DNA from: Schmidtea nova
Taxonomy: Eukaryota
DNA length: 64,000 nt
NCBI GenBank assembly: GCA_044892505.1
Contig: CM097883.1
Span: forward strand, 349,680,001-349,744,000
Direction of reading: 5' to 3'
Position numbers and translations under genes: made by a program. This document shows, one piece after another, positions 7,181 to 46,937 of the stretch (the stretch's first letter is position 1; each line of letters opens with the position of its first letter). The notes beneath the pieces were generated by a model. The model was not told the origin of the DNA and ran no database searches. It worked only from the letters and a program-made list of their open reading frames with translations.

Positions 7181-7230
7181 TGAAGTTGCGTTCTTCTATC
7201 TGTAGATACACACAATTCTACAATGTTCTT

Positions 7231-8203: not shown

Positions 8204-8401
8204 ATTAACTTAAAACTATAACGTTCTATGCTTTACTCCTAAATAGCTCAATCAGGATTTTGTAGATATACTGTTTCAACATCTGTGCCTATAGTACTAT
8301 TAAAAAACGCAATCCATTTAGGGGTCGTTTTTTTAAAGTTTAGATGGCCCTTCCGGTACAGTGTGCTCCCCTATCGTTTGATTCAGTCGCAATTGGGTAT
8401 A

Positions 8402-13406: not shown

Positions 13407-13926
13407 GCTAAATGATAAACCTAGTTTATGATGCTGAAATTATACTACCCACGGCTAATACTATCCGCCGAGTGGAAAAATTTGGATAATTAAATTAATA
13501 AATGGATCGAAATTCAACTAATAACAAACAAAAAAAAAGATCAACACCATTTAATTGATGAAAACATATTAATTCATAGTAGTGTGAATAACATTGTCAG
13601 CGAAAACGCTTCGCTTGGAGGCCGTGAACGGGGGTAATGTGCAACCCGTGATTGACTGGATCTCGTCGGATGTGAGCCATTGAGCAGTTCAGTTTGGGGC
13701 GTCCTTGGCCCGTTTTTGGTAGGCGATTCGGGATCAACCCAAATTGAAGCAGCTTGTGAGGTGAGATATATCCCCAATGGATTACTGTTGTTGGATTTCC
13801 GGCGATGTCCGTTAAAACTATAATGAACTGAGTTGTCGTTTCGGGGTCTCCTTCGTCCGGAATTTCCCATCCGGGGCCTCCTTCGTTCGGAATTTCCCAT
13901 CCGGGGCCTCCTCGATATATGACAGT

Positions 13927-15067
13927 TGTTGAGGTTCCAAATATTTGCTATTTGCAATCTCAACTTGTTATTGGGGTGATTCTTATATAAATATCAAAAG
14001 CAAAGTTTGTTTTTCAAAATTTTATTAATACAATAAAATTACTTTTTATTTCGTTTACAATTGTCTACGAATAACTCAAATTCTTTATTACACAAATTTA
14101 AAAAGAAAAAGTCGTATCAAATCAATTCTTGCAATTGAACCTATTGGGTGACTGTTATGTAGTGCGTGCTATATTTAATTGTGGATCCAATGTTTCTGAT
14201 CCGGGTTTTAATAAGTTTTTCAAGATTGCCTTGAAAACTCAATTTGCGCTAATTTTAAATCTTGATTTTACACTAGATTTTAAAGCTAGGATTTTTTTGG
14301 GCCCCTTTACTGATTTTTTCTTTAGTTTATATAGTAAAATTTGGTATGGATAAATAATTTAATTTCCGGTCTGATATTAAAATATTATTAAATTTAGTTT
14401 TCAATTTATTCTATACTCTGCGATTAAAATAATTATATTTCAATTTCCGTTCTTGTCGTGATATTAAAATTTTCAATTTATTCTATACTCTGCGATATAA
14501 TTATATTTTAATTTCCGGTCTTGTCACGATATCAAAATTTCCAAATTATTTCGTATTCTGTGATATTAAAATATTATTTAGATTTGATTATTTTTAAACA
14601 ACTGAATTAAATTATTTTATTTATTGATCTGTTTGTTTTATATGTATATACAACTCATAAAATAATAAAAGGAATAAAATACACATCAAGATACACATCA
14701 AGATAAAAGGAATAAAATACACATCAAGATACACATCAAGATAAAAGGAATAAAATACACATCAAGATATATTAAAAGAAAACAAATGTTTGTTGAGAAA
14801 TGTCACAATAATAAAATGTCACAATCATATTAATTTTCTTGATTTCTGTGATGGGAGTTGCAATCTTTGTTGAGAAATGTCACAATAATAAAATGTCACA
14901 ATCATATTAATTTTCTTGATGGGAGTTGCAATCTTTGTTGTGTGGCTTGGATTGGGATTCTGTGTATTGGGATTCCGCGTAAATGTTGATCCTATAGCTG
15001 TTAGGCCCTGTCCTATAATATTTATTTAGGACAAATGCTTGGATGGGCTTCCCTCGATCATCCAACA
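13927..15067 (-). repeat. 3' LTR of element D
   Basis: TGTTGAGG...CATCCAACA; identical to 26731-27871 wherever spot-checked. Confidence 0.95.
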
Positions 15068-16877: not shown

Positions 16878-17301
16878 TGTTAATTGAAGATACAAGAATC
16901 GGGATATTGATTGACAATAAAACACTAAGAATCGGGATATCGACTGATAAGTTAGTAAACGATAAAACACTAAGAATCGGGATATCGACTGATAAGTTAG
17001 TAAACGATAAAACACTAAGAATATAGATTGATAATGAGATCGAGATATGATTTTACGACTTGATTTGTGATTGGATTGAAAATTGGAACGATTTGATTGG
17101 GAGTTGGTTTGATTGTTTTGATTGTGCTGAGGATTTGATGTAAAACTGGCTTTATTGGATTGTTTGCCAAATGGGTGACTTGTTTTTCTAAAAATAAAAT
17201 GTAAATTTTTATGTTGAGAGCGTATTTCAGGTTTAACCTTATACGCTCTTTTATAGATACAGATATATGTGATTTTAATATATATTATTGACCAATTTAA
17301 C

Positions 17302-19302: not shown

Positions 19303-19362
19303 CTGTTCCTCATATATATCTATTGGCTTTTCTGCTACTAGTGCAAATATTTCAAGTGCTCC

Positions 19363-22300
19363 TTATTCTGGTATTCTTGATAGTGCATCTGCGTTTTTAT
19401 TTATTCTACCTTGTTTATATATAATTTTTAGGTGCATGTCTTGTATTTTCATTGCCCATTTAAGTAATCTACTTGATGTATCTTTATGTTTCCATAAGCC
19501 TTCTAATGGTTTATGGTCTGTTCTTATTATCACTTCAGTTCCGTAGATGTATGGTTTGAATTGTTTTAGGGCAAATACTATTGCGTAACATTCTTTTTCT
19601 ATTGTTGAATACCTCAGCTGTGCTCCTTTTAATGTTTTACTGGCATATGCTATTACGTAATCTTTCCCTTTCTCTTCTTCTTGGCCTAATACTGCTCCTA
19701 CGGCTTTCCCGCTGGCATCCGTCATTACTATAAATTGGTTTTCGAAATTTGGGTATCTTAACACTGGTGCTGTTATCAATCTTTCTTTTAGTTTGTCGAA
19801 TGCTTCTTGATGTTCTTTTGTCCATTTCTTTTGTATCTTGTTAACTTTATTGTTAATTTCTTGTACTATTAACACGTCTTTGCATTCTCCTTTTGTTTTA
19901 ATTCCCTTTGTTAGTTCTATTATAGGTGTTGCTATCTTTGCATAATCTTGTATGAATTTACGATAGTATCCTGTTAAGCCTAAAAACCCTTGTACTTGTT
20001 GTACTGTTTTTGGTATTGGGAATTTCTTTACAACTTCTATTTTTTCTGGATTTGGTTTTATCCCTTCTACTGTGACTATATGCCCTAAAAATAGTGCCGA
20101 AGACTCTGCCCATTTACATTTGGTTGGTTTAATTTTTATCCTTGCTTTTCTTAGTCTCTCAAGTACGTTTGTTATATCTTTTAGATGTTCCTCGAATGTC
20201 TTTGATGATATTAATATGTCATCCATGTAAACTGCGCAATGTTGTACATTTACTAATATTGTGTTCATTAGACGTTGAAATGTAGCTGGCGCATTAGTTA
20301 ATCCGAAGGGTAATCGTGTGTACTCATATAAACCATGCTCAATAACAAATGCTGTTTTTTCTGCATCCCCTTCTTCCATTTGAATTTGCATATACCCCTT
20401 ATTCGCATCAATGACTGAAAAATACTTAGCATCCCTAAGTTTATCATATTGCTCTTGTGCTTTTGGGAATGGATATGAATCTTTTACTGTTACATCATTT
20501 AATTTACGATAGTCAATGCACATTCTTATTTCTCCGTCTTTCTTTTTGACGGGTACAATGGGTGATGCCCACTGTGAAAAACTTTGTTTTATTACACCTG
20601 CGTCTTTTAATTCTTTAATTTGTCGCTTTATCTCCTCTCTTAGTTTGTATGGTACGCTATATGGTCTTTGTTTTATTGGTCTTGCATTGCCCGTATCTAT
20701 TACATGTTTGATTATGTCAGTATCTCCTAAATCAAATTCATGTTTTGCAAAAACATCGCTGTATTCATCTATTAGTGTCTGTAATTGTGCTTGTTGTGTT
20801 ATTGTTAGGTATTTATTATTGATTTTCACTTTGTCGTATGATTTTATACTATTTGTCTTACTAGGTTCGACTACTCCATTGCCGTTATTATTCATCACGC
20901 TTATCTCACTGACTTCGTATGTTTTTTCTAATTCACCTTTGAATAATTTTCCCAATTTCGTACCTTTGTGTATTTTAACATTACTTTTTTCATAATTTGC
21001 TATTCTCAATGGTATTATTCCCTTTCTCGGAATTACGCATTCATTGGTTAGCATTATATTCTGATTTTGTATAATTGCCGTTTCTGGCTCAAAAATAAAA
21101 GTGTCCTCACTTTTGATGTTAACTTTTAAGGGAATTATATGATCGCATTCATATTCCAATTCAAATGCTTCTAATACAACAACTTCTGTGAACTTGGATT
21201 TATGTTTAATTGCTTTTCTCTTTATCGTATTATCTGTTAAATCTATAATGCAATTTTCTAACTTGTTGAGTATATCGATTCCCAATATACATATGCTATT
21301 ACATTCTTGCACCACTTTAAATATGTGGTTTATTACCTGTTCTGGTGTTTCGACTATTAGTTCTATGTCTCCCTTTAGTGGAATACGATGTGCTGATAAC
21401 GATACTACTTTATCCGTTGTGCTCATAATATTTCTTTTTTGATCATCTGTCAGTTGATCTTCTCTAATTAAGGATGTTGCTGCTCCTGTGTCTACTAATG
21501 CATTTATGATTATATTGTTTATAATTATTCTAAGTCTTGGTCTTGCTTCGTTTGCTGCATCTAATCGTTCCATTGTTTCGACTTCTAAGCTATAACAACC
21601 ATATATCTTTTTAGGTTCACAATGACAATTCTTGTTTTCTCTAGGAATTTTGATTTCTATATTTTCTTGTAGCTCTTTTAGTTGTTCTCGTTGGTTTTCA
21701 TATAGTCCTTGTTGTGGTACATTTCCTTCATGTGATATATGCGCTTTAATTATTTCCTCATCGTTTTCATCATCTACCAGTAATTGCCTTTCTTCATTCC
21801 TTTGGACTTTTATTAAACGTATTTCCTTGTCGTGTTTCGCCGTAATAAGATATTTAGCTATAAATGGGCACAAACATGCTAATAATTTATATGAATTTCC
21901 AAATACTTGTTTTAGCTGTCTCAGTGATACTAGAGAAGAACATATCATTTTTAGTAATGCAACCGTATAATATAAACCTAAGATTGTAGAAAACATGTTT
22001 CCAAGGACTGCAAAGTATCCCCATATGCTATATAGTACTTTATATGCTACTTTTTTGAAGTATTCTTTTGATAATAACACATCAAAGTTGTAATTTCCTC
22101 CGTAACTTCCTTCGATAACTCTGTTAACCATTATTGAAAGTACTCTTTCTTTTTCGTTTGGAAATAGCATGTGTTTTCTTGCACTTTCTATAGCTTCTCT
22201 CGTATATATGCCATTACTGTCCATATCGTTGATTTCTTTAAACTCTAATCTTTTTTCTAGCTCTATGAGTTCTAATTTGAGTGGTTTCATTGCCTCCTTT

Positions 22301-23283
22301 CTATCTGACATAGATATCCACATTTCGTCATTTATTTTGTATAATGGGTCTAATAGGTTAGTGCATTTTTCTATTTTTCTCGGTATATATGTTTTTTCTG
22401 TTAATATTCTAGTAATTGGTTGAAGGTATACCCTTTCTCCTTTATATATTACCGGTAATTCATTAGTGCACTGATTATTTGTTGCTAACGATACACTAAC
22501 AGGTTTACATTGAAATGTCTGTATCACTTCTCCTACTATCCTTGCAAATGTTCCTTCTTCTGAGAAGATAATTGGTGCCATTAAATCTGGGTTTGTTACC
22601 GCCACTGCCATTTTTGTCTTCAATATTTCTCTGTTGAGTTTGCAATCGCTCATAATTGTTGATTGATATACTTTATCTAATTGTACTAGTTGGTTATGAT
22701 AGAAAAAATCGATTTTATTGTTGAAGTATGATGCAAGTTTGACGTCGAATTTATTTACTTTTTGTTTTGCATCTTTGACTTCTTCTTTGCTTATGTATAT
22801 CCCTTCATAATTAGTTTGTATTATTTCCTTACCACATTTTACACTTTTCCTTTTACTAACAAACCTCATTGCTTCGTTTTCAGATTCTGACATATATATT
22901 GTTGGTGTATCTTTTTCTTGTACAATTGTTGTTTTCCTTTTTTGATCTCTCACCCTTTTTGAGTCTACTTCTGTGAACTGTTTTCCTTTGATTTCCCTAA
23001 ATTTTAATGATTTTAATTTTGTTAACTGACAATCATATTTATCTATTTTGTATATTAGCATTGATTCTCCTGTATCGCAATAAGATTCTTCTAATGTACA
23101 AAATTTGTATATCATCATTTTCTTTGAGCTGCTGTCGAATGATGCTTTGAACTTTCTCAGTTCTACCATGTAGTGTCTCCTTACTACAACATTACTCAGT
23201 TTTTCGCCCCATATTGTATATTCTCCTCCTTCACAATATCCTCCTTTTGATGCCCATCCCACGACATTTACATCTTGTCTCAT
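19363..23283 (-). CDS. pol: Chuvirus-like glycoprotein ectodomain and TM fused in frame to protease, RT and RNase H
   Basis: GYCEGGEY...VVVRRHY; GEVIQTFQCKPV...CTNELPV...YLQPITRIL; TM at ~21870-22040; LVDTGA (PR); SPIVPVKKKDG..RMCIDYRKLN and YMDD (RT); TDAS/EKEC/TDH/DALSR (RH). Confidence 0.92.
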   Translation of the reverse strand: MRQDVNVVGWASKGGYCEGGEYTIWGEKLSNVVVRRHYMVELRKFKASFDSSSKKMMIYKFCTLEESYCDTGESMLIYKIDKYDCQLTKLKSLKFREIKGKQFTEVDSKRVRDQKRKTTIVQEKDTPTIYMSESENEAMRFVSKRKSVKCGKEIIQTNYEGIYISKEEVKDAKQKVNKFDVKLASYFNNKIDFFYHNQLVQLDKVYQSTIMSDCKLNREILKTKMAVAVTNPDLMAPIIFSEEGTFARIVGEVIQTFQCKPVSVSLATNNQCTNELPVIYKGERVYLQPITRILTEKTYIPRKIEKCTNLLDPLYKINDEMWISMSDRKEAMKPLKLELIELEKRLEFKEINDMDSNGIYTREAIESARKHMLFPNEKERVLSIMVNRVIEGSYGGNYNFDVLLSKEYFKKVAYKVLYSIWGYFAVLGNMFSTILGLYYTVALLKMICSSLVSLRQLKQVFGNSYKLLACLCPFIAKYLITAKHDKEIRLIKVQRNEERQLLVDDENDEEIIKAHISHEGNVPQQGLYENQREQLKELQENIEIKIPRENKNCHCEPKKIYGCYSLEVETMERLDAANEARPRLRIIINNIIINALVDTGAATSLIREDQLTDDQKRNIMSTTDKVVSLSAHRIPLKGDIELIVETPEQVINHIFKVVQECNSICILGIDILNKLENCIIDLTDNTIKRKAIKHKSKFTEVVVLEAFELEYECDHIIPLKVNIKSEDTFIFEPETAIIQNQNIMLTNECVIPRKGIIPLRIANYEKSNVKIHKGTKLGKLFKGELEKTYEVSEISVMNNNGNGVVEPSKTNSIKSYDKVKINNKYLTITQQAQLQTLIDEYSDVFAKHEFDLGDTDIIKHVIDTGNARPIKQRPYSVPYKLREEIKRQIKELKDAGVIKQSFSQWASPIVPVKKKDGEIRMCIDYRKLNDVTVKDSYPFPKAQEQYDKLRDAKYFSVIDANKGYMQIQMEEGDAEKTAFVIEHGLYEYTRLPFGLTNAPATFQRLMNTILVNVQHCAVYMDDILISSKTFEEHLKDITNVLERLRKARIKIKPTKCKWAESSALFLGHIVTVEGIKPNPEKIEVVKKFPIPKTVQQVQGFLGLTGYYRKFIQDYAKIATPIIELTKGIKTKGECKDVLIVQEINNKVNKIQKKWTKEHQEAFDKLKERLITAPVLRYPNFENQFIVMTDASGKAVGAVLGQEEEKGKDYVIAYASKTLKGAQLRYSTIEKECYAIVFALKQFKPYIYGTEVIIRTDHKPLEGLWKHKDTSSRLLKWAMKIQDMHLKIIYKQGRINKNADALSRIPE

Positions 23284-23406
23284 TTTTGCCCCTATCCTTG
23301 CTTCTAATTCTATTCCTTTATGACCGCTATATTTTACTTTTTTTGTTTTAAATGCATCTTCACACTATTGGTGACAATATTACTGCTTCGGGTGTCCACG
23401 TAGGTT

Positions 23407-26064
23407 TTAACACTGTTCTTGCCCCAACATGACATATATATATGCTTCCTCCTGATACTTTACTATGCACTCTTTGGCCTCTGTATGAATAAAGTCTGAT
23501 TCTTGATAAACATGGAATATTTGAGGCTCTGACATGATTAATTTAGTTGGATTTGCTTCAGGGCAATTTTCAACATCTAACAGTGAGTATTTTTGTCCCC
23601 ACTTTGGATTTTGACAATCATATGCTACCATTGCATTGCCTCCCTTGATTAAATCTAATAACAAAGTGATAATGACTATTACTATGGAGGTTATCGATTT
23701 ACTCTCTGTCTTTGGTTTTACTGTTGCTTTCTTTATTAATTGTTTTATTACCTCATCTGTATCACTCTCTTTATTCGTCGTATCTTTATCATATAATACT
23801 TTCCATCCTCCTTTCTTTTTTATCCATGGTATTGCCTCTACTTTCAATCTTTTAAACATCATTGTTGCTACTTTTTCTAATTGCTCTTTTGGATTTTCCT
23901 TTATGAGCTTTTTATATCTTGCGGCCAAGTATGCCATGGCCGTTATTATTTTATCTTTATCTATCCCTGTATTAAACATGATTTTTAACACTGTTTTTTC
24001 ATTTGCTTCCTCTGTAACTAGTTCTTTAGTATCCTTTTTAATTAACATCATCCTTTCAGTTATATTTTCAATAAGTACTGTTGGCTTTGTTTCTGGAAAT
24101 AGCTTAATATTCATTGCTTTTATTACTTCTTTTATTTTGTTTACGTCATTATTATCGTCTTGATACTCTGGTTGTTCATGTTTATGTTGATTTGCAATCT
24201 CTCTTAATCGTTCTGCTGTCTTCCTATTCTCCGATTTTTCTATTATTTCTGATTTTCGAGGTCTTCCTCTACCTCGTTTTGATGTTTCTGCATCTTTTGT
24301 TTTTGCTTCCTCAGCTATTCTTTCTATTGTTTCTTGTAAGTTACTATACTTTTCATCTATAGGTTTAAATATAATTTCTTCATCCATTACTGATTTCTTT
24401 GTTTCGCTAGGTGATTTATCCCATAGCCTAAATAATCTATCAAAATCGTTTTCTTCATTTATACTCAACTCAACCGACGGTACTGGCGTCATTATTTCAT
24501 TGATCATTTGTTTTTCTACTGTGGCTACCACAATATTATCACTTACTGGGTTTATCCCATAATCGATTAAGTACTCGTCACTTAATAATTCTATTCCGTT
24601 AAAATATAATTTTATTACATCTTTCTCTCCTATGGTTCCTGGCCATTTGGCTCTTACCATTCGTTTTAATTTGCTCACTTTAGTGCAAGTATGCATCTTT
24701 TGTTTAATACTAAAAAAATAATTATCATTTGATTCAATCGTTACATTTAGTGTTTCATGCAATTTTTCATTTTTTCTTATATATTCTCCATAACATTTCA
24801 ACATCTCTTTTATTTCTATTTCTAATTCAAATACTCTCGTTACATTTTGTCTCTTTACCATCATTGGTATTAAATTTCTAAGTCTCTCTAAATCAATCCC
24901 ATTAACCTGTATTTTATTGATTACTCTTAATGTTTCATTGTCATCAAACGGTTGCTTATGCAATACCTCTTTAAATTCCTCTATTAATTCTTTTTGTCTA
25001 TTTTCTTCTGTAAGAAATATTTCATCTGCTTTTCTAATTTCCTTTAACTCATCATTATCAATATCTACTTCATTTGTAAAGGTGCTAAATTCATTTATAG
25101 ACATTTCAAGTTTTCTCTCAATAAGTCTTCCATATTGAGTTTTAAATTCTTTTAGTTCCTCTCTTAATATATTTATTTCTTTATTTGCTGATTCGAGCTC
25201 AGCACTATTTACTTGTTTTATCTCAGGCTCATTTTTAAATCTTACTCTTATTGGTGAATCTGCTCGTGGTTTATTACATACCTTTGCTAGGTGGCCATAC
25301 TTTTGGCAATTATAACATTTTATTTGTCCATTAAAATTCACTTTATCTCTACCATCATTATTATAAGTATTTCGCCTCACTGGGCTATCTTGCCTATTTC
25401 TCGAATTATCTCTATATCTATTATCTCTTCTATTATATTCGAAGCGACTATCTCTATTATTTTTATTATATCCACTGTAACTGTTTCTGTTATAACCAGA
25501 ACGACTATCTCTAAAATTATCGAAATTTTTATTTCCTGGACTATTAAACCTTCCCCTGTTTTCAGGTGATTGGCTTCTATTAGGACTAAATTTTCTTCTA
25601 TTATTAACAAAATTCAAGTATAATTGTTTCATTTCTTCCCAGGGAATACTATCATCCTTATTTCTCAACTCAGGTTTTACCTCGGGTTGTTTTTCAACTT
25701 CTACAGCATCTACCTCTGGTTTAAATCTATCTCTTTGTATTGCTTCGATACGTTTTGCCTTTTGAACTAACTCATTTAAGTCTTCATACTCAATTGTAAT
25801 TAATGCTTTGTATAAATATTTTTGGATGCCGTTCCAAAACTGATCCTCAATAAATTTACTAGTGTGATCTCCGGCACCAAATGCCTTTTTTGCTAATTCT
25901 GTTATCGTGTATATATATTCACCTACTGATTCTCTGGCTCCTTGGTATCTACTTCTAAATTTTTGAACATTTATTTTTTGTAAGTCTCGATCTATTACTA
26001 TTTCTTTTCTAAGGTTTGTAACCAACTCTTGATAATTAATACCGGCATCAATCTCCGGCACCAA
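23407..26064 (-). CDS. gag: Gag continuation with CCHC knuckle, ubiquitin-like domain, AT-hook, Bcl-2-like domain, signal peptide and glycoprotein N-terminus
   Basis: CYNCQKYGHLAKVC; KVSKLKRMV...KLYFNGIELLSDEYLIDYGI; KRGRGRPRK; IMFNTGIDKDKIITAM...WIKKKGGW; hydrophobic ITSIVIVIITLLLDL followed by AYDC...SLLDVENC. Confidence 0.85.
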   Translation of the reverse strand: MVPEIDAGINYQELVTNLRKEIVIDRDLQKINVQKFRSRYQGARESVGEYIYTITELAKKAFGAGDHTSKFIEDQFWNGIQKYLYKALITIEYEDLNELVQKAKRIEAIQRDRFKPEVDAVEVEKQPEVKPELRNKDDSIPWEEMKQLYLNFVNNRRKFSPNRSQSPENRGRFNSPGNKNFDNFRDSRSGYNRNSYSGYNKNNRDSRFEYNRRDNRYRDNSRNRQDSPVRRNTYNNDGRDKVNFNGQIKCYNCQKYGHLAKVCNKPRADSPIRVRFKNEPEIKQVNSAELESANKEINILREELKEFKTQYGRLIERKLEMSINEFSTFTNEVDIDNDELKEIRKADEIFLTEENRQKELIEEFKEVLHKQPFDDNETLRVINKIQVNGIDLERLRNLIPMMVKRQNVTRVFELEIEIKEMLKCYGEYIRKNEKLHETLNVTIESNDNYFFSIKQKMHTCTKVSKLKRMVRAKWPGTIGEKDVIKLYFNGIELLSDEYLIDYGINPVSDNIVVATVEKQMINEIMTPVPSVELSINEENDFDRLFRLWDKSPSETKKSVMDEEIIFKPIDEKYSNLQETIERIAEEAKTKDAETSKRGRGRPRKSEIIEKSENRKTAERLREIANQHKHEQPEYQDDNNDVNKIKEVIKAMNIKLFPETKPTVLIENITERMMLIKKDTKELVTEEANEKTVLKIMFNTGIDKDKIITAMAYLAARYKKLIKENPKEQLEKVATMMFKRLKVEAIPWIKKKGGWKVLYDKDTTNKESDTDEVIKQLIKKATVKPKTESKSITSIVIVIITLLLDLIKGGNAMVAYDCQNPKWGQKYSLLDVENCPEANPTKLIMSEPQIFHVYQESDFIHTEAKECIVKYQEEAYIYVMLGQEQC

Positions 26065-26512
26065 ATGCCTTTTTTGCTAATTCTGTTATCGTGTATATAT
26101 ATTCACCTACTGATTCTCTGGCTCCTTGGTATCTACTTCTAAATTTTTGAACATTTATTTTTTGTAAGTCTCGATCTATTACTATTTCTTTTCTAAGGTT
26201 TGTAACCAACTCTTGATAATTAATACCTTTACATGCTAAATTATTGTATGCCTGTAATGCGTATCCCTTTAAGTATAATGGGATTCGTTGTTTTAATTCA
26301 TTTGTTTTCCATCCGCAAGCCTCTGCATACTGTGTGATTTCGGCAAAAAGGTCGTCGAACTTTTCAGGGTCTCCCTTATATGATTCTATTGGTAATGTTT
26401 TTATAAAATTATGGCTTCTTATGTTGTCTGTATTACTGTTACTTCCACTATTGCTGCTGCCTGTACTATTATTACTCATTTTGTATATTATCTTTTTTCT
26501 CAACTTGTGCAA
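26048..26512 (-). CDS. gag: Gag N-terminus, truncated by an internal tandem duplication
   Basis: IESYKGDPEKF...AEACGW...IPLYLKGYALQAY resembles a retrotransposon gag core. First ORF after the PBS. Confidence 0.8.
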   Translation of the reverse strand: MHKLRKKIIYKMSNNSTGSSNSGSNSNTDNIRSHNFIKTLPIESYKGDPEKFDDLFAEITQYAEACGWKTNELKQRIPLYLKGYALQAYNNLACKGINYQELVTNLRKEIVIDRDLQKINVQKFRSRYQGARESVGEYIYTITELAKKAFGAGD

Positions 26513-26710
26513 TATTTCAGGTGGCTTATCTATAATGACTTTCTTTATCTTTTTACCTATTTTGTTATTGTTAACCTTAAATGTTTGTATATCTTTGAAT
26601 TTCTGTTTTGGTCAATAATATTTAGATAAATATATTTTCCCGATATATATATTACAATATCCCTCTGATCGCAATTCCTATCCCCCAATTGATATTATAA
26701 TATTTTATGG

Positions 26711-26728
26711 TCCCGGTTCGCGGCACCA
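26711..26728 (-). promoter_or_regulatory. Primer-binding site (tRNA-Phe-like 3' end; tRNA-His not excluded)
   Basis: TGGTGCCGCGAACCGGGA lies 2 nt inside the 5' LTR. Its complement UCCCGGUUCGCGGCACCA resembles the metazoan tRNA-Phe 3' end. Confidence 0.8.
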
Positions 26729-26730
26729 AA

Positions 26731-27871
26731 TGTTGAGGTTCCAAATATTTGCTATTTGCAATCTCAACTTGTTATTGGGGTGATTCTTATATAAATATCA
26801 AAAGCAAAGTTTGTTTTTCAAAATTTTATTAATACAATAAAATTACTTTTTATTTCGTTTACAATTGTCTACGAATAACTCAAATTCTTTATTACACAAA
26901 TTTAAAAAGAAAAAGTCGTATCAAATCAATTCTTGCAATTGAACCTATTGGGTGACTGTTATGTAGTGCGTGCTATATTTAATTGTGGATCCAATGTTTC
27001 TGATCCGGGTTTTAATAAGTTTTTCAAGATTGCCTTGAAAACTCAATTTGCGCTAATTTTAAATCTTGATTTTACACTAGATTTTAAAGCTAGGATTTTT
27101 TTGGGCCCCTTTACTGATTTTTTCTTTAGTTTATATAGTAAAATTTGGTATGGATAAATAATTTAATTTCCGGTCTGATATTAAAATATTATTAAATTTA
27201 GTTTTCAATTTATTCTATACTCTGCGATTAAAATAATTATATTTCAATTTCCGTTCTTGTCGTGATATTAAAATTTTCAATTTATTCTATACTCTGCGAT
27301 ATAATTATATTTTAATTTCCGGTCTTGTCACGATATCAAAATTTCCAAATTATTTCGTATTCTGTGATATTAAAATATTATTTAGATTTGATTATTTTTA
27401 AACAACTGAATTAAATTATTTTATTTATTGATCTGTTTGTTTTATATGTATATACAACTCATAAAATAATAAAAGGAATAAAATACACATCAAGATACAC
27501 ATCAAGATAAAAGGAATAAAATACACATCAAGATACACATCAAGATAAAAGGAATAAAATACACATCAAGATATATTAAAAGAAAACAAATGTTTGTTGA
27601 GAAATGTCACAATAATAAAATGTCACAATCATATTAATTTTCTTGATTTCTGTGATGGGAGTTGCAATCTTTGTTGAGAAATGTCACAATAATAAAATGT
27701 CACAATCATATTAATTTTCTTGATGGGAGTTGCAATCTTTGTTGTGTGGCTTGGATTGGGATTCTGTGTATTGGGATTCCGCGTAAATGTTGATCCTATA
27801 GCTGTTAGGCCCTGTCCTATAATATTTATTTAGGACAAATGCTTGGATGGGCTTCCCTCGATCATCCAACA
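26731..27871 (-). repeat. 5' LTR of element D
   Basis: Direct repeat of 13927-15067, adjacent to the PBS. Confidence 0.95.
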
Positions 27872-29452
27872 CAGTGTCTGATCCACCGGTCCAAATTGAA
27901 AATGGACATTTTTTCCCCAGTTCTCGTCTCCACTTGTACATCAACGCATTTAGCGTTCTGAGGAGCTCTTGTGGAAGCGATTTCAATCTCTTCTGCTGCG
28001 TCCGGATCGGCTGGTCATCAGCCTGGGCCGCACGTCGTTGGATCGCCAAAAATTCCTCCACTTTTGTTTGTTTCATCTGAGATAAGAATGATTCCAATAA
28101 AAATTAATGTGACAAATTCGCTAATCGTAGTGAAATCCGATGAAGTATGCTCCCCTCGTTGATGAAAAAAATATATATATTGATAAATTTTAATTCAAGG
28201 ATTCATTGGTCTTGCCGTGAGGAGATTGATCATTTAAAACCCCCAAAAAAATGAAGAGAAGGAATGAGAAAAATTTTCTAAAACTATTAACTTAACACCG
28301 TCGCTATATACAGCGATCGGGATACGTTTATAAGAAATCTAAATATTATTGCCTGCGCTATTTACAGCGATCAGGTTACTGTTTTATTTATCCAATCTGT
28401 GATTTAAATTCGATTATGTTACTATTTATACCCTAGTCAGAATTTCACTATACTATCGGAATCTCCTCGGTGTGTCCGGATGCATCTATTTGTCTAGATC
28501 AGCTGCAGTTGTGTGGATTCGACATAACGTACATAAGGTGAAACCGATTTAGTTGATTTGTTAAGTTATATAATCAATGATATTTTAATTACTCTTGGAC
28601 ATCTCCTGTTTGATCGAACGCTACCTAACCAACACTAGACCCTGTTTGCAAGCACAACCCTGGCCCATGCACAATTCTACTTTAAGGTAAACCTCTGATA
28701 GCACTCAATTAAATAAAATAAAACTGTCAATAGAGACTTCGCTCACCATCTTGTGGAACGGTGAAATCCCACACTTACGGCTTACTCCCTCGCAGCGTGA
28801 GCTACTGAGGAAGTGTATTTATTATAAAATAATGAAATAAGAAAAATAAACCAAATCATTAATAATAAACTATATTAAAATAAAATCAAATGGGAATCAT
28901 GAGAAACATGTAATAAAAAAAATTTTAATAACAATAAAAACAAAATTACTCTCTAAGATCCGATTTTGATGCGTTCCCAAAAATTATTTCGAAAATTTAT
29001 CGTAATAAAGTTGATGTGACTGAATCGATTGTTATAGATCAGTTCGGTAATCAAAATTTTTATGTCTGTTTTTATGATTTTTGGATCGGTATTGACCAAT
29101 CAGGATCAGGCCATCCATCAAAGTAATTTTGTTATTTTATTTTAATATAAACCATTTTAAATTTCCGGTTCAGGTTTCTCGCTGGGTGGTCCTGATTTTT
29201 CAAGTAATTAACTAATTAATTGTACTCTTATTTGATTTTATTTGTAATTTTCTTATTTCAGACCCCCATGCTGCTCGTTCCCGTGTCAATTTGATTTTTT
29301 TCCTTTGCTGGAAATTTAGTTATTATTATTTATTATTTTATTTTTATTTTTAATTTAGGTTTTTCCAATGTTTTTTGTATTTATTATTTGTATTTTTTGT
29401 TTAAATTATTACATTATTCTTGTCTTTTTTATACCATTTGGTGTGCCCAACA

Positions 29453-36840: not shown

Positions 36841-38806
36841 TGCTGGGTTCATGGAGGGGTTAGATGAAAAATATTCTAACAATGACTAGGGATCCATCAT
36901 CCATGATCATGAATAAAATGCGTAAATTTCTACACTCAAGCGCCCTTGGTTATTTCCCTTTATACCCAAGATGGTGATGCGCAGGTGGTTAAACAATGAT
37001 GGGCAGGTGAGCACTTTTGCTAGTACTACTCCCCATTTATGTTTACGGGTTCATCGCTGCTGATAGAAGGACTTTGATAGAATCCTAGTTTACGCAATTC
37101 CTTTCGGGGAATGTGTCCCCAGTAGATCAGTTGGTTGGGCCTTCCTTCCGCATCGTTCACCCGTATTATCATTTGGCCAAACCTTTTAGAATATGGTTTA
37201 CTGGAGATCGGCCAGCCTGGGCCTCTTCGGTACATTACGAGGTCCCGTCCATCTGCCCAGAATGAAAAGGGACATTGTCGGTTGAAGCCTCGGCGCCATT
37301 TGTACATTTGTGCGTTTATTGTACGCAGGATCGGTGGTGGAAGTTCCTTGACTCTGTCAGCCGCTAATCTTTCATCGATCGCCTCTACCGAGTTTCGGAG
37401 ATCGGTTATCATATGGTATATTCCTGCTGTCGACATCTGTGTTATCCCAACTTCATTAACTTGTTATAGATATGATTTATTTAATGCAAAAAAAATTTCT
37501 TATAATTCAAGTTATCTTCGCCGTGATGTACCACGGTCGGAATAATGTGCTCATAACTTGTCCTGCGCTATGTACAGCGATCAGGATAACGATTAAAACA
37601 AAATTATTACTGAAATTCTTGCGCTATTTACAGCGATCAGGCTAACCTAATATGTATATTTAAACTGGAATTCCGTCGCTGTCTGGCGCGATCGGAATTC
37701 GGCTGATTTATGTATATGTGTGTCGTAGGGTTTACAATTCGGATTTAATTTTTGTCGATCAATATTCAGTGTTCTTATCGAAGTCATAAACGAATTTCGA
37801 GAAAAATGGACTTTGGTCCTCGGTTGAATTGATAATGGATATCCATCTAAATTGATTTTTCTGACTTTTTATTCAATGATAATTTATTCCCTGGGCCTAT
37901 GGTTGACGCGTTCTGCTCAACCTTCGGGTGGAGAGTACCTAATACCTCCTGGGTGCCCCTTGCCATCAGGCAGCCCTCTAATCACCTCCCTTTGCTCATA
38001 ACGACTTATCCTCTGTGCAATCATCCAAAATTTACAATCATAAATTTGTCAATTACAATCATTTGAACTATCTAAAATTTTACTGATTCTAAAAAGGTAG
38101 AACCGCCACGTGAGACCGTGAAGCCCCACAACGACGACTCGGGCTCCCTCGCCGCGTGAGCAGCCAAGGAAGCATAACTATATTCATTAATATGAATGAA
38201 ATAAAATAAAGTTAAACATAAAATTATAATTCAAATATAAATGTAAATCATGGGTACAACAAAAATTATTCAAGAATAAAAACAAATAAAAATTTTACTG
38301 TTCCGTACCGTGATCTTGGTTTGAAAATTCTCGAACAAAAAATCGGTTGATAATAAGAATTACGCTTAGAATGCAATTCTCCAAAATATATTTTATAAGT
38401 GTTATAGTTGTGATTTTCGGATCGGTATTTATACTGATGCGGCTGGTCAGATTGGCCAATCAGGATCAGACCGTCCATCAAAGTGATTCTGTTATTTTAT
38501 TTTAATATAAATATTATTTTGTTTCCTGTTCAGGTTTCTCGCTGGGTGGTCCTGATTTTTAAAGTAATTAATTAATTACTTGCACTATTATTTTATTTTA
38601 TTTACAATATTCTTATTTCAGGCCCCCTTTACTGCTTGTTTCCGTTTTATTTTTGAATTTTCCTTTTGCTGGAAATTTATTAAATATTATTTATTATTTT
38701 ATTCTTATTTTTAATTTGACCTTGATATTTTTTGTATTTATTATTTTATTCTTATTTAAACTTTTATATTATTTTGGTCGTTTCAGCCTATTTGGCGGGC
38801 CCAACA
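36841..38806 (-). mobile_element. LTR of family B (1966 bp)
   Basis: TGCTGGG...CCCAACA termini with multi-block homology to LTR A. Its first 17 nt recur at 61131. Confidence 0.8.
37026..37436 (-). CDS. LTR B-encoded YKWRR-family protein of unknown function (136 aa)
   Basis: Intact ORF (LRTINAQMYKWRR..CPFSFW..YRRGPGW..GRP..IYWG), homologous to the split gene in LTR A. Confidence 0.7.
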   Translation of the reverse strand: MSTAGIYHMITDLRNSVEAIDERLAADRVKELPPPILRTINAQMYKWRRGFNRQCPFSFWADGRDLVMYRRGPGWPISSKPYSKRFGQMIIRVNDAEGRPNQLIYWGHIPRKELRKLGFYQSPSISSDEPVNINGE

Positions 38807-39647
38807 TCACTCGGGGACCCCTAAAATTGCGTCCCGCAATTAATTATACATAACTACTTACATCATCATACCTAAAAAGGTTATAGAAATATATACATAA
38901 ACATACAGTCACATAAGGTGATCAAATTTAATCATATTGAGTGTCAATTGATAGTCAAAATATAATACAATTATTGTCACGAATAGTTCAATGTATATCA
39001 TGAATGTTTTATACAATTTGTTCGATTATCTGGCTCGCTTTGGGTTGGGTTCGGGTTTTCTCATTGATTGTTGGTAGTTCATAGTGGGTTTGAATTCGAT
39101 TGAGATGGCTCTTCATTCGTTTTAAGGATCTGTTATCTCGCCTTGAAGTTTGATTGAAGATGACTTGTTTCTGCTTAAGGATTTTTATTCTGTAAGAGGC
39201 AATCAGGATTGTGATTGCAATGACAGTTACGCTGATTGCGAGGATTATTATGATGGATATAATCCATTTCTCTTGGTATTCTATTTCGGCTTGGTATAGA
39301 CTTTTTATGGGTTCTCTACCTTCTTTCAGGATTTTTCGGATCTCTTTTAATTATTTGTTGTTTATCGAGGATTTGCTGGATTTGCTGGTCTTGATTATAG
39401 GGTACTTTCTGTCGATATTCATTGATTTCTTGAATTACTTCACTGATTAGGTTGTCTACTTTGTAGATTTTGTCGGGTAGGACTCGTAACTGTTTCTCGG
39501 TGAGTTGTAACTCTTCTCTTTATAGGGTGATGGTTATTAACCATAGGAGTAGTGGTATTGCGAGCTTTCTCATCTCTTTCTTTACACATGGGTCAATACA
39601 GCTTGACACTTTTTACATATTTTATTTACACTTAATTTTCGCTTTGT

Positions 39648-40707
39648 TTAAATCAGGGTTTCATTTAGTTCGTGGAAACCTTCGTATTGCGGTTCCACCT
39701 GATTTATGGGGAGTGTCATCCATATCACCGTACTCCTCCACATTCCAACTTCCTCTCGGTATGTGTGGGATATCTGGATTTCTTCAACTAGTAAGTATTC
39801 CAGATAGTTTGCCTGCTCTGTCAGGGTTTCTATTTGTTTTTCTAATTCTGTTAATTTTTTCTCTTTCTCTTCCTTCTCCATCATTTCTGTTACTGCTGCT
39901 GTAATGCTTGTTTCTTTTGTTGGTATTGGTTTTTCTGTCAGCTTCTTTCTCAGTTCTTCGTTTTCTTTTGTCAAGTTTGTTATGTTTTCTTCATAACTCT
40001 GTTTCGTCTCTTCAGTCTTTCTTTGGTTCTTTTTAATTCTATTTTCTTCTGGGTAATCACTCCTTGATACCCATTTATATCTCTTTTCATGTTTTCCTCC
40101 TTGTGATTCCACATTCCGGTAAGCATATTTTTTAGTTGTTCTTGGTTAGCTAAGTCTTCTCCCATTCTTTGCACTTGATAAGTTAGTTCTTTAATTTTCT
40201 TTGCCTGTTCCCGGATAAATTGTTGTCTCTTTTTATTCCATTTTTTATTTGACTTCTCTTGACTGATTTTCTGTCCCAACTCCTCTTTTAGTTCGTCAAT
40301 TTCTTTATATAATTTCCAGTCATCACTGTATGCTGTTCTTTCTATTATCTCCCTTGCTTCCTTGTAAGATTCTTTCGCCTCTTTCTTCCAGTATCTTGCC
40401 TGTTCTGTGATTGAATGAATCTTATGATCTTTTTTATCTGCTGTCTATCTCTCTCTTCTCGTCGCTCTTTCATCATTCCTCTGTAGTATTCATTCTGATG
40501 TTTTAACGTTTTGTAAACCTCTTCTATTTTTTCTCGACTTCTTTGATTTGCTTTCTCCGCTTCTCTTAGTAATTCGGCTTGTCTCTCAAATTCTTCCTGT
40601 TTCCGATAATATGCGTTGATCCATATTTCGATTTGCTCCATGTAATTACTGATCGCCTCATCTTGGTGTATGGTGATTTCCTGTAGATATACCTCTATAT
40701 TTCCCAT
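39648..40707 (-). pseudogene. Frameshifted long coiled-coil protein gene (three consecutive, partly overlapping ORFs)
   Basis: ORFs 40345-40707, 39980-40279 and 39648-40112 are all E/K/Q-rich heptad-like and lie in different frames. Confidence 0.55.
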
Positions 40708-40813
40708 TTCTATAATTACAGATAAATTTTAATCATTTTATTTTTTATTATTTTTGTTTATTTGTTATTTTATATTGTTTCTGTACATTTTATTTACATG
40801 ATCACTCCTCTTG

Positions 40814-42178
40814 TCACGACAACCATCCTTTTCTATTCGCTTTCTCGTTCCTTTCCATTTCTATGTATAAGGTGTCCGCATATAGTCGTTGCCATAGGTT
40901 TTCTTGCATTATAAACATCGGTTCTCCCGCTGCTAGTCCACATTCTGTTGTTGGTTTTTCGCTCGTACTCGCATGTTTATCTGTCTCAAAGAATTTTTCC
41001 ACCGGTTTTCCTACACTTATGATTCTTATAATGACTCCTACTTTCAGGGGCCATTCTATTAGGTCGTCGTATTCCCCTTTACATAGTGAAAAAAACATTG
41101 ACACATGTGTTCCTCGTCCTCTTCCGTCTCCATTTGGGTATAGTTTCAATCTCACATTAGCCCCGTTTTTCCATAAATAAAATGGTGGGCTTATTACTGC
41201 CGTTTTCGTCATATTTCGGGCGTCTGCTAGTTTGTCTCTGAAATCTGTTGTTTTCCATAAATAAGGTGCAATTGGTAAATCCTTTCTCGTCAATTTCTCG
41301 TATTAATTTGTTATACTGTACTTTCATTTCTTTTCCCAATTCTTCGATGGCTATTATTTTTTCTTCCATCTTTTCGCGGGTTACTTCGAATTGTTCTCTC
41401 GTTTCTAATAGTAAGTTCATCATTATTTTATGCGATTCTACTTCCTTTTCTTGTTTCCGAATTGTCTGTTCTGATTCTTTTGTCGTTTCGTTTGTCATCT
41501 CAACGTGCGTTAGCAATGCTTCTTCCAGGTGTTGTTTCATTGTTTGTCGCGTCCTTTTTTCCTTGCATCCATGTTTGTTATATGGACATTCTCTTGGTCT
41601 CTCGGTACATACTTCCAGTGTTCGTGTAAATTCATTTCTTCTGTCATTTTACATTTGTTTGGACATTTGCTTACGTATTGTCCGCATACTTTCTCCTCTG
41701 TTATATTCAGGTGTTCTTCGATTTTTTTCCTTGTTTCTCGAATTCCGCAGTATTCGCATAAGATTTCTTCTTCTTTACATTCGTCTTTGTGTTCTTTATT
41801 CTTTAGAATTATTGTTTGTTGACACTTCTCGCATTCGGTTCTCTTCTCGCAATTTTCCATATGATTTTCCAGATTGTTTATTTGTCCTTGCCATCTACAA
41901 GGTGTATTTACACATTCGATTACTGTGCTCATAATTTCTCTCTGCGTTGCTTTATCCGATCTGGTTTCGCCCCACACTATTATTCCTTCTTTATATTCTG
42001 GGCATGCTGTTATTCCTGTTGCACCTAATTCTTGTATGCATTTAGTACATATTCTACATCCACATATAGTTTGTCTAGGTTTTCGTAGTAAGTTGTTACA
42101 ATTCCCGCATGTGAGCCTCTTGCTCCATTTTCTGTTTTCAGATCTCAAAATTTCGACTACTCGTTTTTCCCTGTCCAT
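40814..42178 (-). pseudogene. Intronless TRAF-family gene (RING, TRAF zinc fingers, coiled coil, MATH) with two frameshifts
   Basis: CGNCNNLLRKPRQTICGCRICTKC; CVNTPCRWQGQINNLENHMENC; SPPFY...LKLYPNGDGRGRGTHVSMFFSLCKGEYDDLIEWP is a TRAF-type MATH signature. Confidence 0.9.
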
Positions 42179-42269
42179 TTCTACAATAATATATACATTC
42201 GACTTGTTGTTTATTTTTGATTTTTCTTGTTTTTATTTTTACATATTTAAAATTTTCCGCTTTATTTAT

Positions 42270-42626
42270 CTATGGCTTATTTGTCGAATCTGGTTCCAGC
42301 TCGTTGTTTAATCTATTTATTACCCAACTCATCCATCCTTCTTCGGATTCTTCCCTTTCTCCTCTTGTTAAACGGTTTATTTCTACCGCTTGTCTTTGAT
42401 TTATATTGCTTATAGTTTGATTTTCTCTAGTGAGCTCAGTTATAACTCTTTGTTGTTCTTCTATTCTATGTAATTGTTCAAAACAGTTGTTATAACTCTC
42501 CGATAATAGAATTTGTCTTTCCACTAGTTGGTTTTGTAATGAGTTGACTGTTCGTACCATTAAATCGCACTGCGCTTTCCATCTCATGGCCATAGTTATT
42601 TCAGTTGTTTCGTCTTGTTCGTTCAT
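42270..42626 (-). CDS. Short coiled-coil ORF, unknown function
   Basis: 118-aa heptad-rich ORF co-oriented with the neighbouring cluster. Confidence 0.45.
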   Translation of the reverse strand: MNEQDETTEITMAMRWKAQCDLMVRTVNSLQNQLVERQILLSESYNNCFEQLHRIEEQQRVITELTRENQTISNINQRQAVEINRLTRGEREESEEGWMSWVINRLNNELEPDSTNKP

Positions 42627-42751
42627 TTTCTAAATTATATACATCAATCACTTTCTCGTTTTCTCTTTTTATGTATTTTATAATATCGATACCCATACTA
42701 TTACGGTAATGCTTTGTTATTTACACTATTATTTACAGTCATAATCCGCCC

Positions 42752-43233
42752 CTATATACTCCTTACTATCCTTTCGTTGTATCTCTCTTCATCTTCTACT
42801 TGCTTCCAAAATTCTTTACCTTTCGTTCTTCTTTGAAATTCTTTCTGTATTTCTTCTGGTATTTCTATTCTTTGGTTCGTAATTTTAATATCTGGCCATT
42901 GTATGGCTATTGTTTTATTTTTCCTCCTGTATATCACATATACTATTATGCTTGTTGTCAGTATTCCACACACTATTAATATTCCCATACTAATCGATCC
43001 TATTACTACTTTTCCAATGCTTGTTTCTTTGGTTTTATTCTGATTTACTTTTATCTCATATTTGTTTTGGGTTTGAGCCTCCGGCTTCTTCTTAGTTGAT
43101 AATTATGTTGGATGAAATGAGTTACAACTCGCTTCCATCGTCCGAGCTGTAAATCATGATCCTCCAAGAAAGTTAAATCAATGGCACTTGTGTACCCATT
43201 ACTATCTTCATTAGCTATGCTGTTAATATTCAC
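42752..43233 (-). pseudogene. C-terminal remnant of a single-pass membrane protein
   Basis: GILIVCGILTTSIIVYVIY followed by RRKNK. The upstream ORF 43051-43233 may be a broken ectodomain. Confidence 0.4.
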
Positions 43234-43592: not shown

Positions 43593-44768
43593 TGGCTGTG
43601 CGTTCAAAATTTTATGAATTACAGTTTTTCTTTACGTTTCAGGCTAGGGTCACGCATCAATGCATAAATACCCATTGTACTTATACCTGTATATATTCAC
43701 TGGTAAATACTGTTGGCGTGTTGTAGGTTTTCAAAATTTATTTATTTCCTAACGAGCGTCTTCCTAACTCCGCTTGGAATTATAACCATATAATCTATTA
43801 TCCGCTCTACTTTCTAGGGTTACAACACACACATAAAAAGATTTACTGTTCATACACCCGTAAGTACCCTATTTATTTTCGTTGGAAATGTGTATAACAG
43901 CCGACCGCAAATCAGCAGATGAGCTCCTTCACAAGAACTACTCCTGATTTGTCGCATCGTTCGGATTCTGCTTGACCGATAGAAGGTCTTCTCATTTCAA
44001 CTCCTCACCCGGTCGTAGGTCTCTCATTTAGGATGATCGTATTACTCTAACTTAACCTATTCTCTATAGTGATTCTTGACACTTCATGACTCTACTCCTG
44101 TTCATATACTTTCCATACACTATCAAAATTCAAACTGTAATAACTACGACGAAGATTTGTACTAGATTTGTACAACGAAGATTTGTACATAGATTTGTAC
44201 TAAGATTTTGACTTTAATATTTCCCCCGTTTAGCTTGGATCGATTGGCGTCAATTTCTGCCAATTTCTGTTTCAGTTTATGTCTTCGTTGGGCATGAGAT
44301 TTTCGGCGAGTCCTCGTTTTGGGCTTTGCTTATCCCGTTGTTACTTTCTCTGTTCTCTCCTCTATCTCTGGCGCGGGGAACCATTTTCGAGCGTTGTGGG
44401 TCTAATCATATCCGCTAGCTGAGCGGCTATGAAATGCTTGGTAATAATCCGGTGACAGTTATTAGCCTCTATCCGGGCTGCCTCCAACTCAACGCGTTGG
44501 TCTTCGATCGTGTCGATAGCCCGTCGTAGTCTCTTTTGCAACTTTCATCTCCGCAGGGGCGAAGTAACTTTCCTCCAATTCGATAATTCTCCGTTTCAGT
44601 TTCCCGATAGTTTTCATTTATGATGACGTTGGTTCCCTTGAAAATTACAATTAATACCTCGCATTCCACACCCTGATCATTCTCCAGTAACTATTCCTTG
44701 AATACCTCTGTTAGAGACAGTGAAAATAGTAGAAAAATATTGAGTTAGATGAAGACTATAGCATAGGG

Positions 44769-45360: not shown

Positions 45361-45790
45361 CTCTTTCAGAGCAAACAGAAAAATAGGAGAGCAATGAATT
45401 GCTTGTACAAATAACAAGCACTGCTCATTGATTTCCAATCAATATTCCTATGATTGGGAAATCGAAAAAAAATATTTTTAAAAGAAAATTTATTGTTTCA
45501 AATGGTTTATTTGCCTCGAAGGAATTTTTTAATGCACAGAAAAAAAGGAGGTCATGTTCTTTTGTTTATCTCTGTAAATGGATCCGGTCAGTTCTGTGGA
45601 ATAGCAGAGATGACATCAATTGTAGATGAAAGCGTTGTGACTGGGGCTTGGGGTATGGATAACTGTAGAGGGAAATTTTTAGTCAAATGGATATTTTTGA
45701 AAGATGTTCCATCTCATATCGACGAAAGTTAAAACCCCAAAATCTAATTACTAATCTGCGAGATGCAACTGAACTCAAATCGGAAAGAAC
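45361..45790 (+). pseudogene. Decayed YTH (m6A reader) domain, YTHDF-like
   Basis: VLLFISVNGSGQFCGIAEMTS...GAWGMDNCRGKFLVKWIFLKDVP, then LITNLRDATEL after a break. Matches YTHDF FSVNGSGHFCGVAEM...WIFVKDVPN...VTNSRDTQE. Confidence 0.85.
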
Positions 45791-46937
45791 TTCTGAATCT
45801 ACATATAAAGATGATCCCGGGTATTAGGCTTTGTACATGATTATGGATTGTAAAAGTAATATGTCGATATTCGATGATGTTCTGCATTATGGAAAAAGAG
45901 AATTGGAATTGAAATTTGAACTCAAAAACAATACGTAGAAAGTTGTACACAAAATTTTTATTGATTATTTTTCTACAAAAAGATTTAATTCATACTTCCA
46001 TTTCTCCTATTGTCTAAAATTTGGTCTAACTCGCCTAAAACCCATTCACCAAGGGATATTTCGGCTCCACCGAATTCACTTGCTATTGCTTCTCGTTAGG
46101 TGGCCCAGGGTCAATAGGTTTCCGGGTTAAAATAATCTATAATGGATTTCAATTTCGATTGTACAATAGATTTCTTGATATAAACAATTGAGGTCGATTT
46201 TATCTTCGACAATAGATTTCCGAATTGGAATTTGAACTATTGGTATTATGTTTCGTTCAAACAATAGATTTCCTGCTTTGGGTTTTCTTCAATTTTTATT
46301 TAAATAACGATATCGAGTGGTTTGCTCTCAGAAGAATTTCCCACATTTTTTTCGGGCCATTACGTGATCTTTTCTAGATGACTAATACTACTTATTTTTC
46401 TGAAAAACATATAATTGGTAGAAGTCTTGCAACCGATGCAATAAATTATCTCAACTGTTAAGCTTAATGAATGACTTTTATGAATCTTAAATGCGACGGC
46501 TTCACCTGGTAAATCCATTACTTCTGCACATCCTACAAAAATTAAAATACAAAATTTGTCCCTTTACTCAAAATTATAAATAATTAATGTCCTAATTCCC
46601 TTGTTACTTATCCTCCAAAATCTAGGTAAATTTACCGATGACTTAAACCATCCGTTCCACCTGTGCGGGACCGATGACTCGAGCAACCGAAGGTCAGCGA
46701 CCCGGGGGGTCGTCATGACCTTAAACATCATTAATATTTTAAATAAACTTATTCGCATGAAAACTAAAAATGCTAAATATATGAGGGGTTATCCGAAATA
46801 TTAATTAAATCATAATAAACAATGAATTACTAGTAATAAGTTGTATTTAACGATAAATACACAAATGTTCCAAATGTTTCCACTAATTACCAGTTTAAAG
46901 TGCGTTAGTTAAAAAGTGTTGTCTGTAAACTTTAAAG

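Follow-up and report, generated by a model that had tools for sequence, protein, structure and literature searches.

A full-length TRAF gene as cargo of a Burro-like LTR retrotransposon in Schmidtea nova

The window analysed here is a stretch of 64,000 nucleotides from Schmidtea nova (GCA_044892505.1, contig CM097883.1, positions 349,680,001 to 349,744,000). Open reading frames and Pfam matches revealed an intronless RING-zinc finger-coiled coil-MATH gene on the minus strand at 40814-42178, as the preliminary description of this DNA had reported. That description had placed the TRAF gene beside an LTR called B. The link to the element holds, but "beside" does not: the gene lies inside an LTR element, 2.0 kb upstream of its 3' LTR (36841-38806), and comes second among the four accessory genes that separate this LTR from a giant gag-env-pol polyprotein. 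The window keeps just the decayed 3' 6.3 kb of the element, from 43092 to 36841, colinear with sister copies. The features are as follows.

42752-43092, minus strand: C-terminal tail of the polyprotein with a hydrophobic segment; similarity to the sister copies ends at 43092, the 5' truncation point
42270-42626, minus strand: accessory ORF2, an open frame of 118 aa with a predicted coiled coil and no Pfam match above the cut-off
42180-42200, minus strand: A/T-rich stretch that resembles a splice acceptor, terminates in TAG directly ahead of the TRAF ATG and is conserved in sister lineages; putative function
40814-42178, minus strand: TRAF accessory gene with RING (Cys replacing a His ligand), zinc fingers, coiled coil and MATH; breaks near 41614 and 41288
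41537-42232, minus strand: stop-to-stop frame with RING and zinc fingers
41157-41648, minus strand: stop-to-stop frame with the last zinc finger and the coiled coil
40814-41302, minus strand: stop-to-stop frame with MATH
39648-40707, minus strand: accessory ORF4, coiled coil, 353 aa in open copies; broken near 40430 and 40013
39648-39700, minus strand: site of the ORF4 tail motifs DEGFxE and ETxV-stop, kept in four lineages
39009-39573, minus strand: accessory ORF5, approximately 187 aa in open copies; broken in the window
36841-38806, minus strand: 3' LTR, TG...CA, 1.97 kb, approximately 1.1 kb shorter than that of the closest sister copy
27872-29452, minus strand: first part of a solo LTR of the TRAF element's LTR family, split by element D
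13927-27871, minus strand: element D, 14 kb, gag-Bcl2-env-PR-RT-RH-IN, with 1141-nt LTRs that are 100% identical and a 4-nt target duplication
12332-13926, minus strand: second part of the solo LTR, carrying the LTR-internal ORF 12873-13439

The window copy is a dead 3' remnant. Its truncation junction at 43092 was bridged without differences by a 625-nt contig in three of four public runs, which may derive from the same material as the assembly. The remaining 5' part of the element was found neither in 43093-64000 nor in the 40 kb that follow the window, and a different repeat occupies approximately 43700-44700. In ORF4 of the window a degron-like motif is altered. ORF5 has an N-terminal hydrophobic stretch and one transmembrane-like segment. 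The other LTR that had been labelled B (12332-29452) is a solo LTR of the TRAF element's family, interrupted by element D. The latter is a separate element whose RT/RH is 49% identical to that of the TRAF-bearing family, and it has no TRAF. Two ORFs of approximately 170-200 aa without a Pfam family are carried by the LTRs (in the window at 12873-13439, 13574-13993 and 37026-37463, minus strand).

The TRAF gene has its ATG at 42178, and its stop codon ends at 40814. The locus consists of three stop-to-stop frames on the minus strand; RING and MATH share one frame and the middle, coiled-coil piece is shifted, in agreement with the two frameshifts that the preliminary description had noticed. At both breaks, which are accompanied by stops, the window copy departs from 29 of 29 sister copies; both are private to it. 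Three in-frame 3-nt deletions are found in addition. A full-length open frame is absent at this locus; it is open, with 452-458 aa, in 20 of the 30 close copies that were fetched. The window pieces matched zf-C3HC4_4 (E 0.004), zf-TRAF (E 2.5e-4) and TRAF-mep_MATH (E 3.6e-19) in Pfam. An open sister TRAF of 458 aa matched the MATH domains of TRAF3/5/2 (E 1e-20 to 3e-23) and the RING regions of TRAF6/5/2 (E 1e-8 to 1e-11) in the PDB. Its predicted fold (mean pLDDT 81.7) consists of RING, zinc fingers, a 77-residue helix and MATH, and TRAF domains rank top in Foldseek. The domain order is that of the TRAF family, with the RING deviating by its Cys for His. Several MATH positions that we take to form the peptide groove differ from host and outgroup TRAFs, so the cargo may have binding partners other than the canonical ones.

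A DNA search of the same genome with the window TRAF gave 40 scored matches among 526 candidates; 39 of these are other loci, 87-94% identical across nearly the whole gene. An exact 20-nt TRAF word occurred 162 times (control: 0). Over three lineages, such words mark at least 162, 115 and 9 sites, and hence at least 286 element-borne loci, all of these counts being lower bounds. Linkage was scored at 20 sites, taken as every fifth among the first 100 of the 162 and located on contig C1 and part of C2. At all 20 of them, at least one cassette gene adjoins the TRAF: ORF2 at 19, pol at 18, ORF4 at 19 and the LTR start at 15, and the 458-aa TRAF frame is open at 14. Two further lineages have an equal cassette with a TRAF approximately 51% and 45% identical, which brings the lineages with a TRAF at the equivalent position to at least three. 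Decayed intermediates (64-77% identity) and a more distant copy (37%) were also found; overall, the TRAFs of the further cassette-bearing lineages are 45-75% identical.

The organization of the complete element could be read from sister copies: 5' LTR, polyprotein, ORF2, TRAF, ORF4, ORF5 and 3' LTR, with the accessory cassette co-oriented with the polyprotein in all copies. In five of seven extended copies the paired LTRs are 99.58-99.97% identical; the other two have no paired LTR within 40 kb. In four copies both outer ends could be defined; these are 29.2-29.9 kb long, with TG...CA ends and 4-nt target duplications in all four. The LTRs are 3.0-3.2 kb long in the sister elements, and after the 5' LTR of these four copies lies a tRNA-primer-like stretch, which we presume to correspond to tRNA-Pro; no purine-only tract was seen preceding the 3' LTR. 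The polyprotein exceeds 5000 aa and contains, by Pfam matches in sister copies, CCHC, fusion glycoprotein, PR, RT, RH, IN and ankyrin regions. Its reading frame is interrupted at least once in every copy examined. As to the BCL2-like motif that Burro elements have ahead of env, the Pfam Bcl-2 match in lineage 1 is weak (E 0.19); the Bcl-2 stretch of element D matches lineage 2 at E 0.001 and nothing in lineage 1 at E 0.01. BIR, dUTPase-like, SUMO-like and midasin-like segments gave no Pfam match in the sister copies; the published calls came from HHpred. Deletion derivatives were observed as well (L111:1527-5438; L136:893-2341; L012; L187-L188), comprising an in-frame fusion of an RT piece with MATH, a TRAF-ORF4 tail fusion, an LTR piece abutting TRAF, and an LTR-gag piece with ORF2-TRAF.

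Relatives of the element differ in this cargo. In another family of the genome, the polyprotein itself includes MATH, placed between gag and env; the RT/RH of that family is 89% identical to that of the TRAF family, and an RT tree gave no resolution of the three TRAF lineages versus this family. A TRAF-less relative, an LTR family of 23-25 kb without RT or integrase and with LTRs of 4.2-4.4 kb (L185, L218-L246), is very young and abundant (40 of 40 scored matches at 100% identity; 2937 first-look candidates). No TRAF match was obtained in 15 of its loci. There, ORF2 directly precedes ORF4, extra membrane-protein ORFs are present, and tandem units with a common LTR also occur. One old copy, 95% identical to this relative, does bear a TRAF. 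Since both the young, abundant relative and element D are without TRAF, not all relatives require the gene in cis.

The TRAF cargo is under purifying selection, as judged from its substitution pattern. dN/dS is approximately 0.12, with pairwise values of 0.11-0.15 in every dS bin up to 0.45 (190 non-independent pairs of 20 open copies, broken ones being left out). Variants common to several copies gave 0.11 and private variants 0.27. By domain, with one divergent copy set against 19, the values are 0.28 for the N-terminus and RING, 0.12 for the zinc fingers, 0.09 for the coiled coil and 0.13 for MATH. Lineage 2 gave 0.12-0.20, and between sub-lineages dN is 0.12 at a dS of 0.85. In a common set of 10 pairs, RT/RH is more constrained than TRAF, which has a several-fold larger dN.

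To place the cargo among other TRAFs, trees were calculated. In the MATH tree (63 rows), the 13 element rows form one clade with a support of 100/99, and none of the 37 host-type rows falls inside it. The element TRAFs also form one clade in the full-length tree (100/100). Twenty-five intron-split host genes, mostly from the distal end of C2, cluster apart together with one single-exon gene (99/93). At approximately 405-455 Mb of C2 (L079-L098, L119-L137) lies a large tandem cluster of intron-split host TRAFs, a clade apart from the cargo. The genome has at least two sources of TRAFs, retrotransposon cargo and the intron-split tandem host cluster. All eight element rows have the RING His-to-Cys exchange, as do 17 of the 19 host-type loci that were scanned, one of which yielded no match. 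Seven of eight outgroup proteins have His at this position, and among 95 public hits that could be parsed, 17 have Cys. Because the element TRAFs form one clade and have the RING Cys in common with host TRAFs, one old capture from the host's own TRAF family is likely. A capture from the host lineage is likely also because the host-type genes group with named triclad TRAFs. As sister of the element TRAFs, the AU test rejects neither the tandem cluster of the host (p 0.235) nor the polyprotein MATH (p 0.43), so either is compatible with the data. No supported host sister gene of the cargo was found; the nearest rows are two public proteins (P0148/P0169) at 31-33% identity, and the cargo is approximately 25-37% identical to any non-element TRAF found.

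The preliminary description had pointed to the lack of introns. This is not diagnostic: several host-type TRAFs run from RING to MATH in a single open frame with no adjoining element gene, and because they are themselves single-exon, the lack of introns proves little. Poly(A) tails were found after none of six single-exon host TRAFs. The single-copy intronless TRAF L155, which the MATH tree places close to the element clade, could have been a donor or an escapee, but this was discarded because it groups with Dendrocoelum TRAFs. Adjoining it, at L177:3715-7110, are PolB2/endonuclease VII pieces, which we take to be Polinton-like. The central proposal of the preliminary description, that the TRAF is cargo of the element, is borne out by the linkage at 20 of 20 sampled sites, by the equivalent position of the gene in at least three lineages, by the dN/dS of approximately 0.12 and by the single clade. 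The result that it had named as refuting, a linkage unique to this locus, was not obtained. Its further suggestion of a route for TRAF family expansion applies to copy number only, as no host-type row is nested among the element TRAFs and the tandem cluster is a separate clade.

The accessory gene next to TRAF has a conserved end. In four lineages (L021, L101, L169, L185), 25-48% identical to the reference copy, the ORF4 tail consists of DEGFxE followed by ETxV-stop. DEGFxE is present in 60 of 68 ORF4-type frames, some copies being counted twice owing to overlapping loci. A looser degron pattern was absent from 1836 other frames, three of which had an E[ST]x[VIL] end. By motif match, the tail resembles a phospho-mimetic beta-TrCP degron joined to a class 1d PDZ ligand. 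Phospho-mimetic degrons recognized by beta-TrCP include DDGFVD of CDC25B and the engineered DEGYSE (available part of PMC9606124), and class 1d ligands are defined as ETXV in the portion of PMC2553845 at hand; the similarity is one of motif only and belongs to ORF4, not to TRAF. One beta-TrCP D-domain match was found in the genome, and the host beta-TrCP gene is split into exons. In the ESM Atlas, ORF4 had only generic coiled-coil neighbours and low recognition. PDZ-ligand-like tails were seen elsewhere, namely ETLV in an accessory ORF of the polyprotein-MATH family (L109:6063-6755, plus strand) and STLV at the end of the element D pol frame (window 17302-19362, minus strand).

The starts of the accessory genes are also marked. 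A YAG lies 1-8 nt upstream of the start in 11 of 12 lineage-by-ORF cases (read by eye, one case using the second ATG), compared with 103 of 615 background ATGs (17%). A pattern built afterwards from the acceptor-like sites matched 2 of the 615. No splice donor was conserved across all four leaders checked. The acceptor-like signals of the window (42180-42200, 42630-42645 and 40708-40722, minus strand) include an A/T-rich word that begins with TGTA; in several cases it reads TGTATATA or TGTAAATA, and we liken it to a Pumilio element. Genes downstream of a polyprotein stop require messages of their own. Because each accessory start has an acceptor-like signal, the TRAF would be expressed from a separate spliced, subgenomic RNA, produced either by cis-splicing, with the donor located in the LTR or leader, or by trans-splicing.

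We give a probability of roughly 60% to the reading that the TRAF is a conserved cargo of a Burro-like element, likely from one host capture, and that intact copies likely act as an adaptor or decoy damping host stress and death signalling. Since all TRAF domains are under selection, we infer a working adaptor. The cargo would trimerize with host TRAF2/3/5-like proteins, or compete against them, at the TBK1 or TAK1-MAPK step, with which planarians respond to foreign nucleic acid and wounding; damped signalling would spare the cells that transcribe the element. ORF4 would supply the same cassette with a PDZ ligand and with a beta-TrCP-type degron that is constitutive. In the available part of PMC13563047, TBK1 limits the expression of foreign DNA and induces TRAF2/3/5 homologues in a planarian, and the accessible text of PMC7586133 reports that TRAF RNAi raises cell death in a planarian. 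NF-kB, named as the output in the preliminary description, is doubtful, as PMC13563047 states, in the same part, that no clear NF-kB homologue was found in a planarian. A Rel-homology search of the genome gave no match and is uninformative on NF-kB.

More tentatively, the whole 3' cassette may be a virus-style host-control module, in which a captured TRAF, as decoy or rewired ligase in the TBK1/TAK1 pathway, is combined with a coiled-coil ORF4 protein mimicking a phosphorylation-independent beta-TrCP degron as well as a PDZ ligand, each from separately spliced RNAs. The cassette resembles the accessory genes of complex viruses. If this is true, a sizeable part of the planarian "TRAF expansion" traces to these elements, as does the piRNA attack on traf mRNAs that is described in the accessible portion of PMC6824462.

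The main rival to the decoy or rewired-adaptor reading is a role in the element's own life cycle, which we regard as unlikely. Here, the TRAF would serve as a ubiquitin ligase or scaffold for the trafficking or turnover of Gag/Env, for particle assembly, or for evasion of the chromatoid body and piRNAs. The constraint on all TRAF domains, RING included, would suit such a role, as would the altered groove residues, the neighbouring coiled-coil and membrane proteins with their degron-like and PDZ-ligand tails, and the related family with MATH alone in the polyprotein between gag and env. However, the entire signalling architecture is kept rather than MATH only, a very successful relative does without TRAF, and the cargo theme (Bcl-2-like, ankyrin, and BIR according to PMC6431247) points to host pathways.

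Selection at the level of the host is improbable. According to this explanation, element TRAFs raise the TRAF dose and aid cell survival or immunity, as mutualism or early domestication; it draws on the at least 286 element-borne loci and on the essential role of host TRAFs for cell survival in one planarian (accessible text of PMC7586133). The looser private variants (0.27 versus 0.11) indicate instead selection on active lineages and not on fixed insertions, and no free-standing gene is nested in the element clade. That the TRAF is a neutral passenger, captured by template switching and with a low dN/dS due to ascertainment, is strongly disfavoured. TRAF-less relatives do thrive, broken copies such as the one in the window exist, and dN/dS was counted on open copies only, but a shared-variant dN/dS of 0.11 at dS up to 0.45, a dN of 0.12 at dS 0.85 between sub-lineages, frames that stay open across lineages 45-51% identical and 14 open frames at 20 sampled sites are contrary to it. 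An independent processed pseudogene that happens to adjoin an LTR, as the intronless, broken and 5'-truncated window copy might suggest, is refuted by its colinearity with the sisters from 43092 to 36841 and by the element linkage at 20 of 20 sites.

The interpretation of the TRAF as signalling cargo can be set beside known systems. Planarian Burro elements were reported to carry MATH_TRAF_C, BIR, BCL2-like and ankyrin cargo; MATH_TRAF_C is part of ORF1 in S. mediterranea, and in D. tigrina it is found on an accessory ORF that lies upstream. The idea that this cargo meddles with apoptosis and ubiquitination was raised there (PMC6431247). By that description, the present elements resemble the giant gypsy-like Burro/GYPSM1 elements in their length of approximately 30 kb, multi-kb LTRs, MATH/TRAF cargo, accessory ORFs, and a single very large ORF in which gag is followed by in-frame env, then by PR-RT-RH-IN and ankyrin repeats. 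They differ in that pol is followed by a cassette of four genes, one of them a complete RING-ZnF-CC-MATH gene, conserved in at least three lineages. Unlike in Burro1/GYPSM1 proper, where MATH_TRAF_C is in ORF1, the TRAF is a separate downstream ORF; an ORF1-embedded MATH is present in this genome too, as the sister family. MATH/TRAF cargo on Burro is already published (PMC6431247), and what is added here is the DEGFxE plus ETxV tail of ORF4. We found no paper on a full-length downstream TRAF under selection in Burro-like elements, and the Grohme 2018/Repbase entries may show one.

The cargo shares domain order and fold with TRAF2/3/5-type adaptors such as Dugesia japonica TRAF2-like A and Dendrocoelum TRAF-2/-4/-5, and its best PDB matches are TRAF3/5/2. 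In contrast to these, it is element-borne, approximately 25-37% identical, and changed at several MATH groove positions. To our knowledge, it is rare for a retrotransposon to maintain a complete host signalling gene by selection. A search of the genome with the MATH family PF21355 gave 2419 first-look candidates. The abundance of TRAF-like loci agrees with the planarian TRAF/MATH expansion described in the available parts of PMC6109357, PMC7586133 and PMC8807557, which, as far as those parts go, do not split element-borne from host copies, whereas at least two sources are present here. In counts of planarian TRAF/MATH sequences, element cargo must be kept apart from the tandem host cluster, and probes or RNAi directed at TRAFs may also hit elements.

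Three other features were noted in the window. At 45454-45830 (plus strand) lies a YTH-domain fragment (Pfam E 1.9e-13) with frame shifts, which looks like a decayed copy. The region 5326-8365 is DNA-transposon-like, with inverted ends (5326-5457 and 8233-8365) flanking two ORFs, and 61527-63998 is likewise DNA-transposon-like, with a DUF4371-type transposase-like ORF pair.
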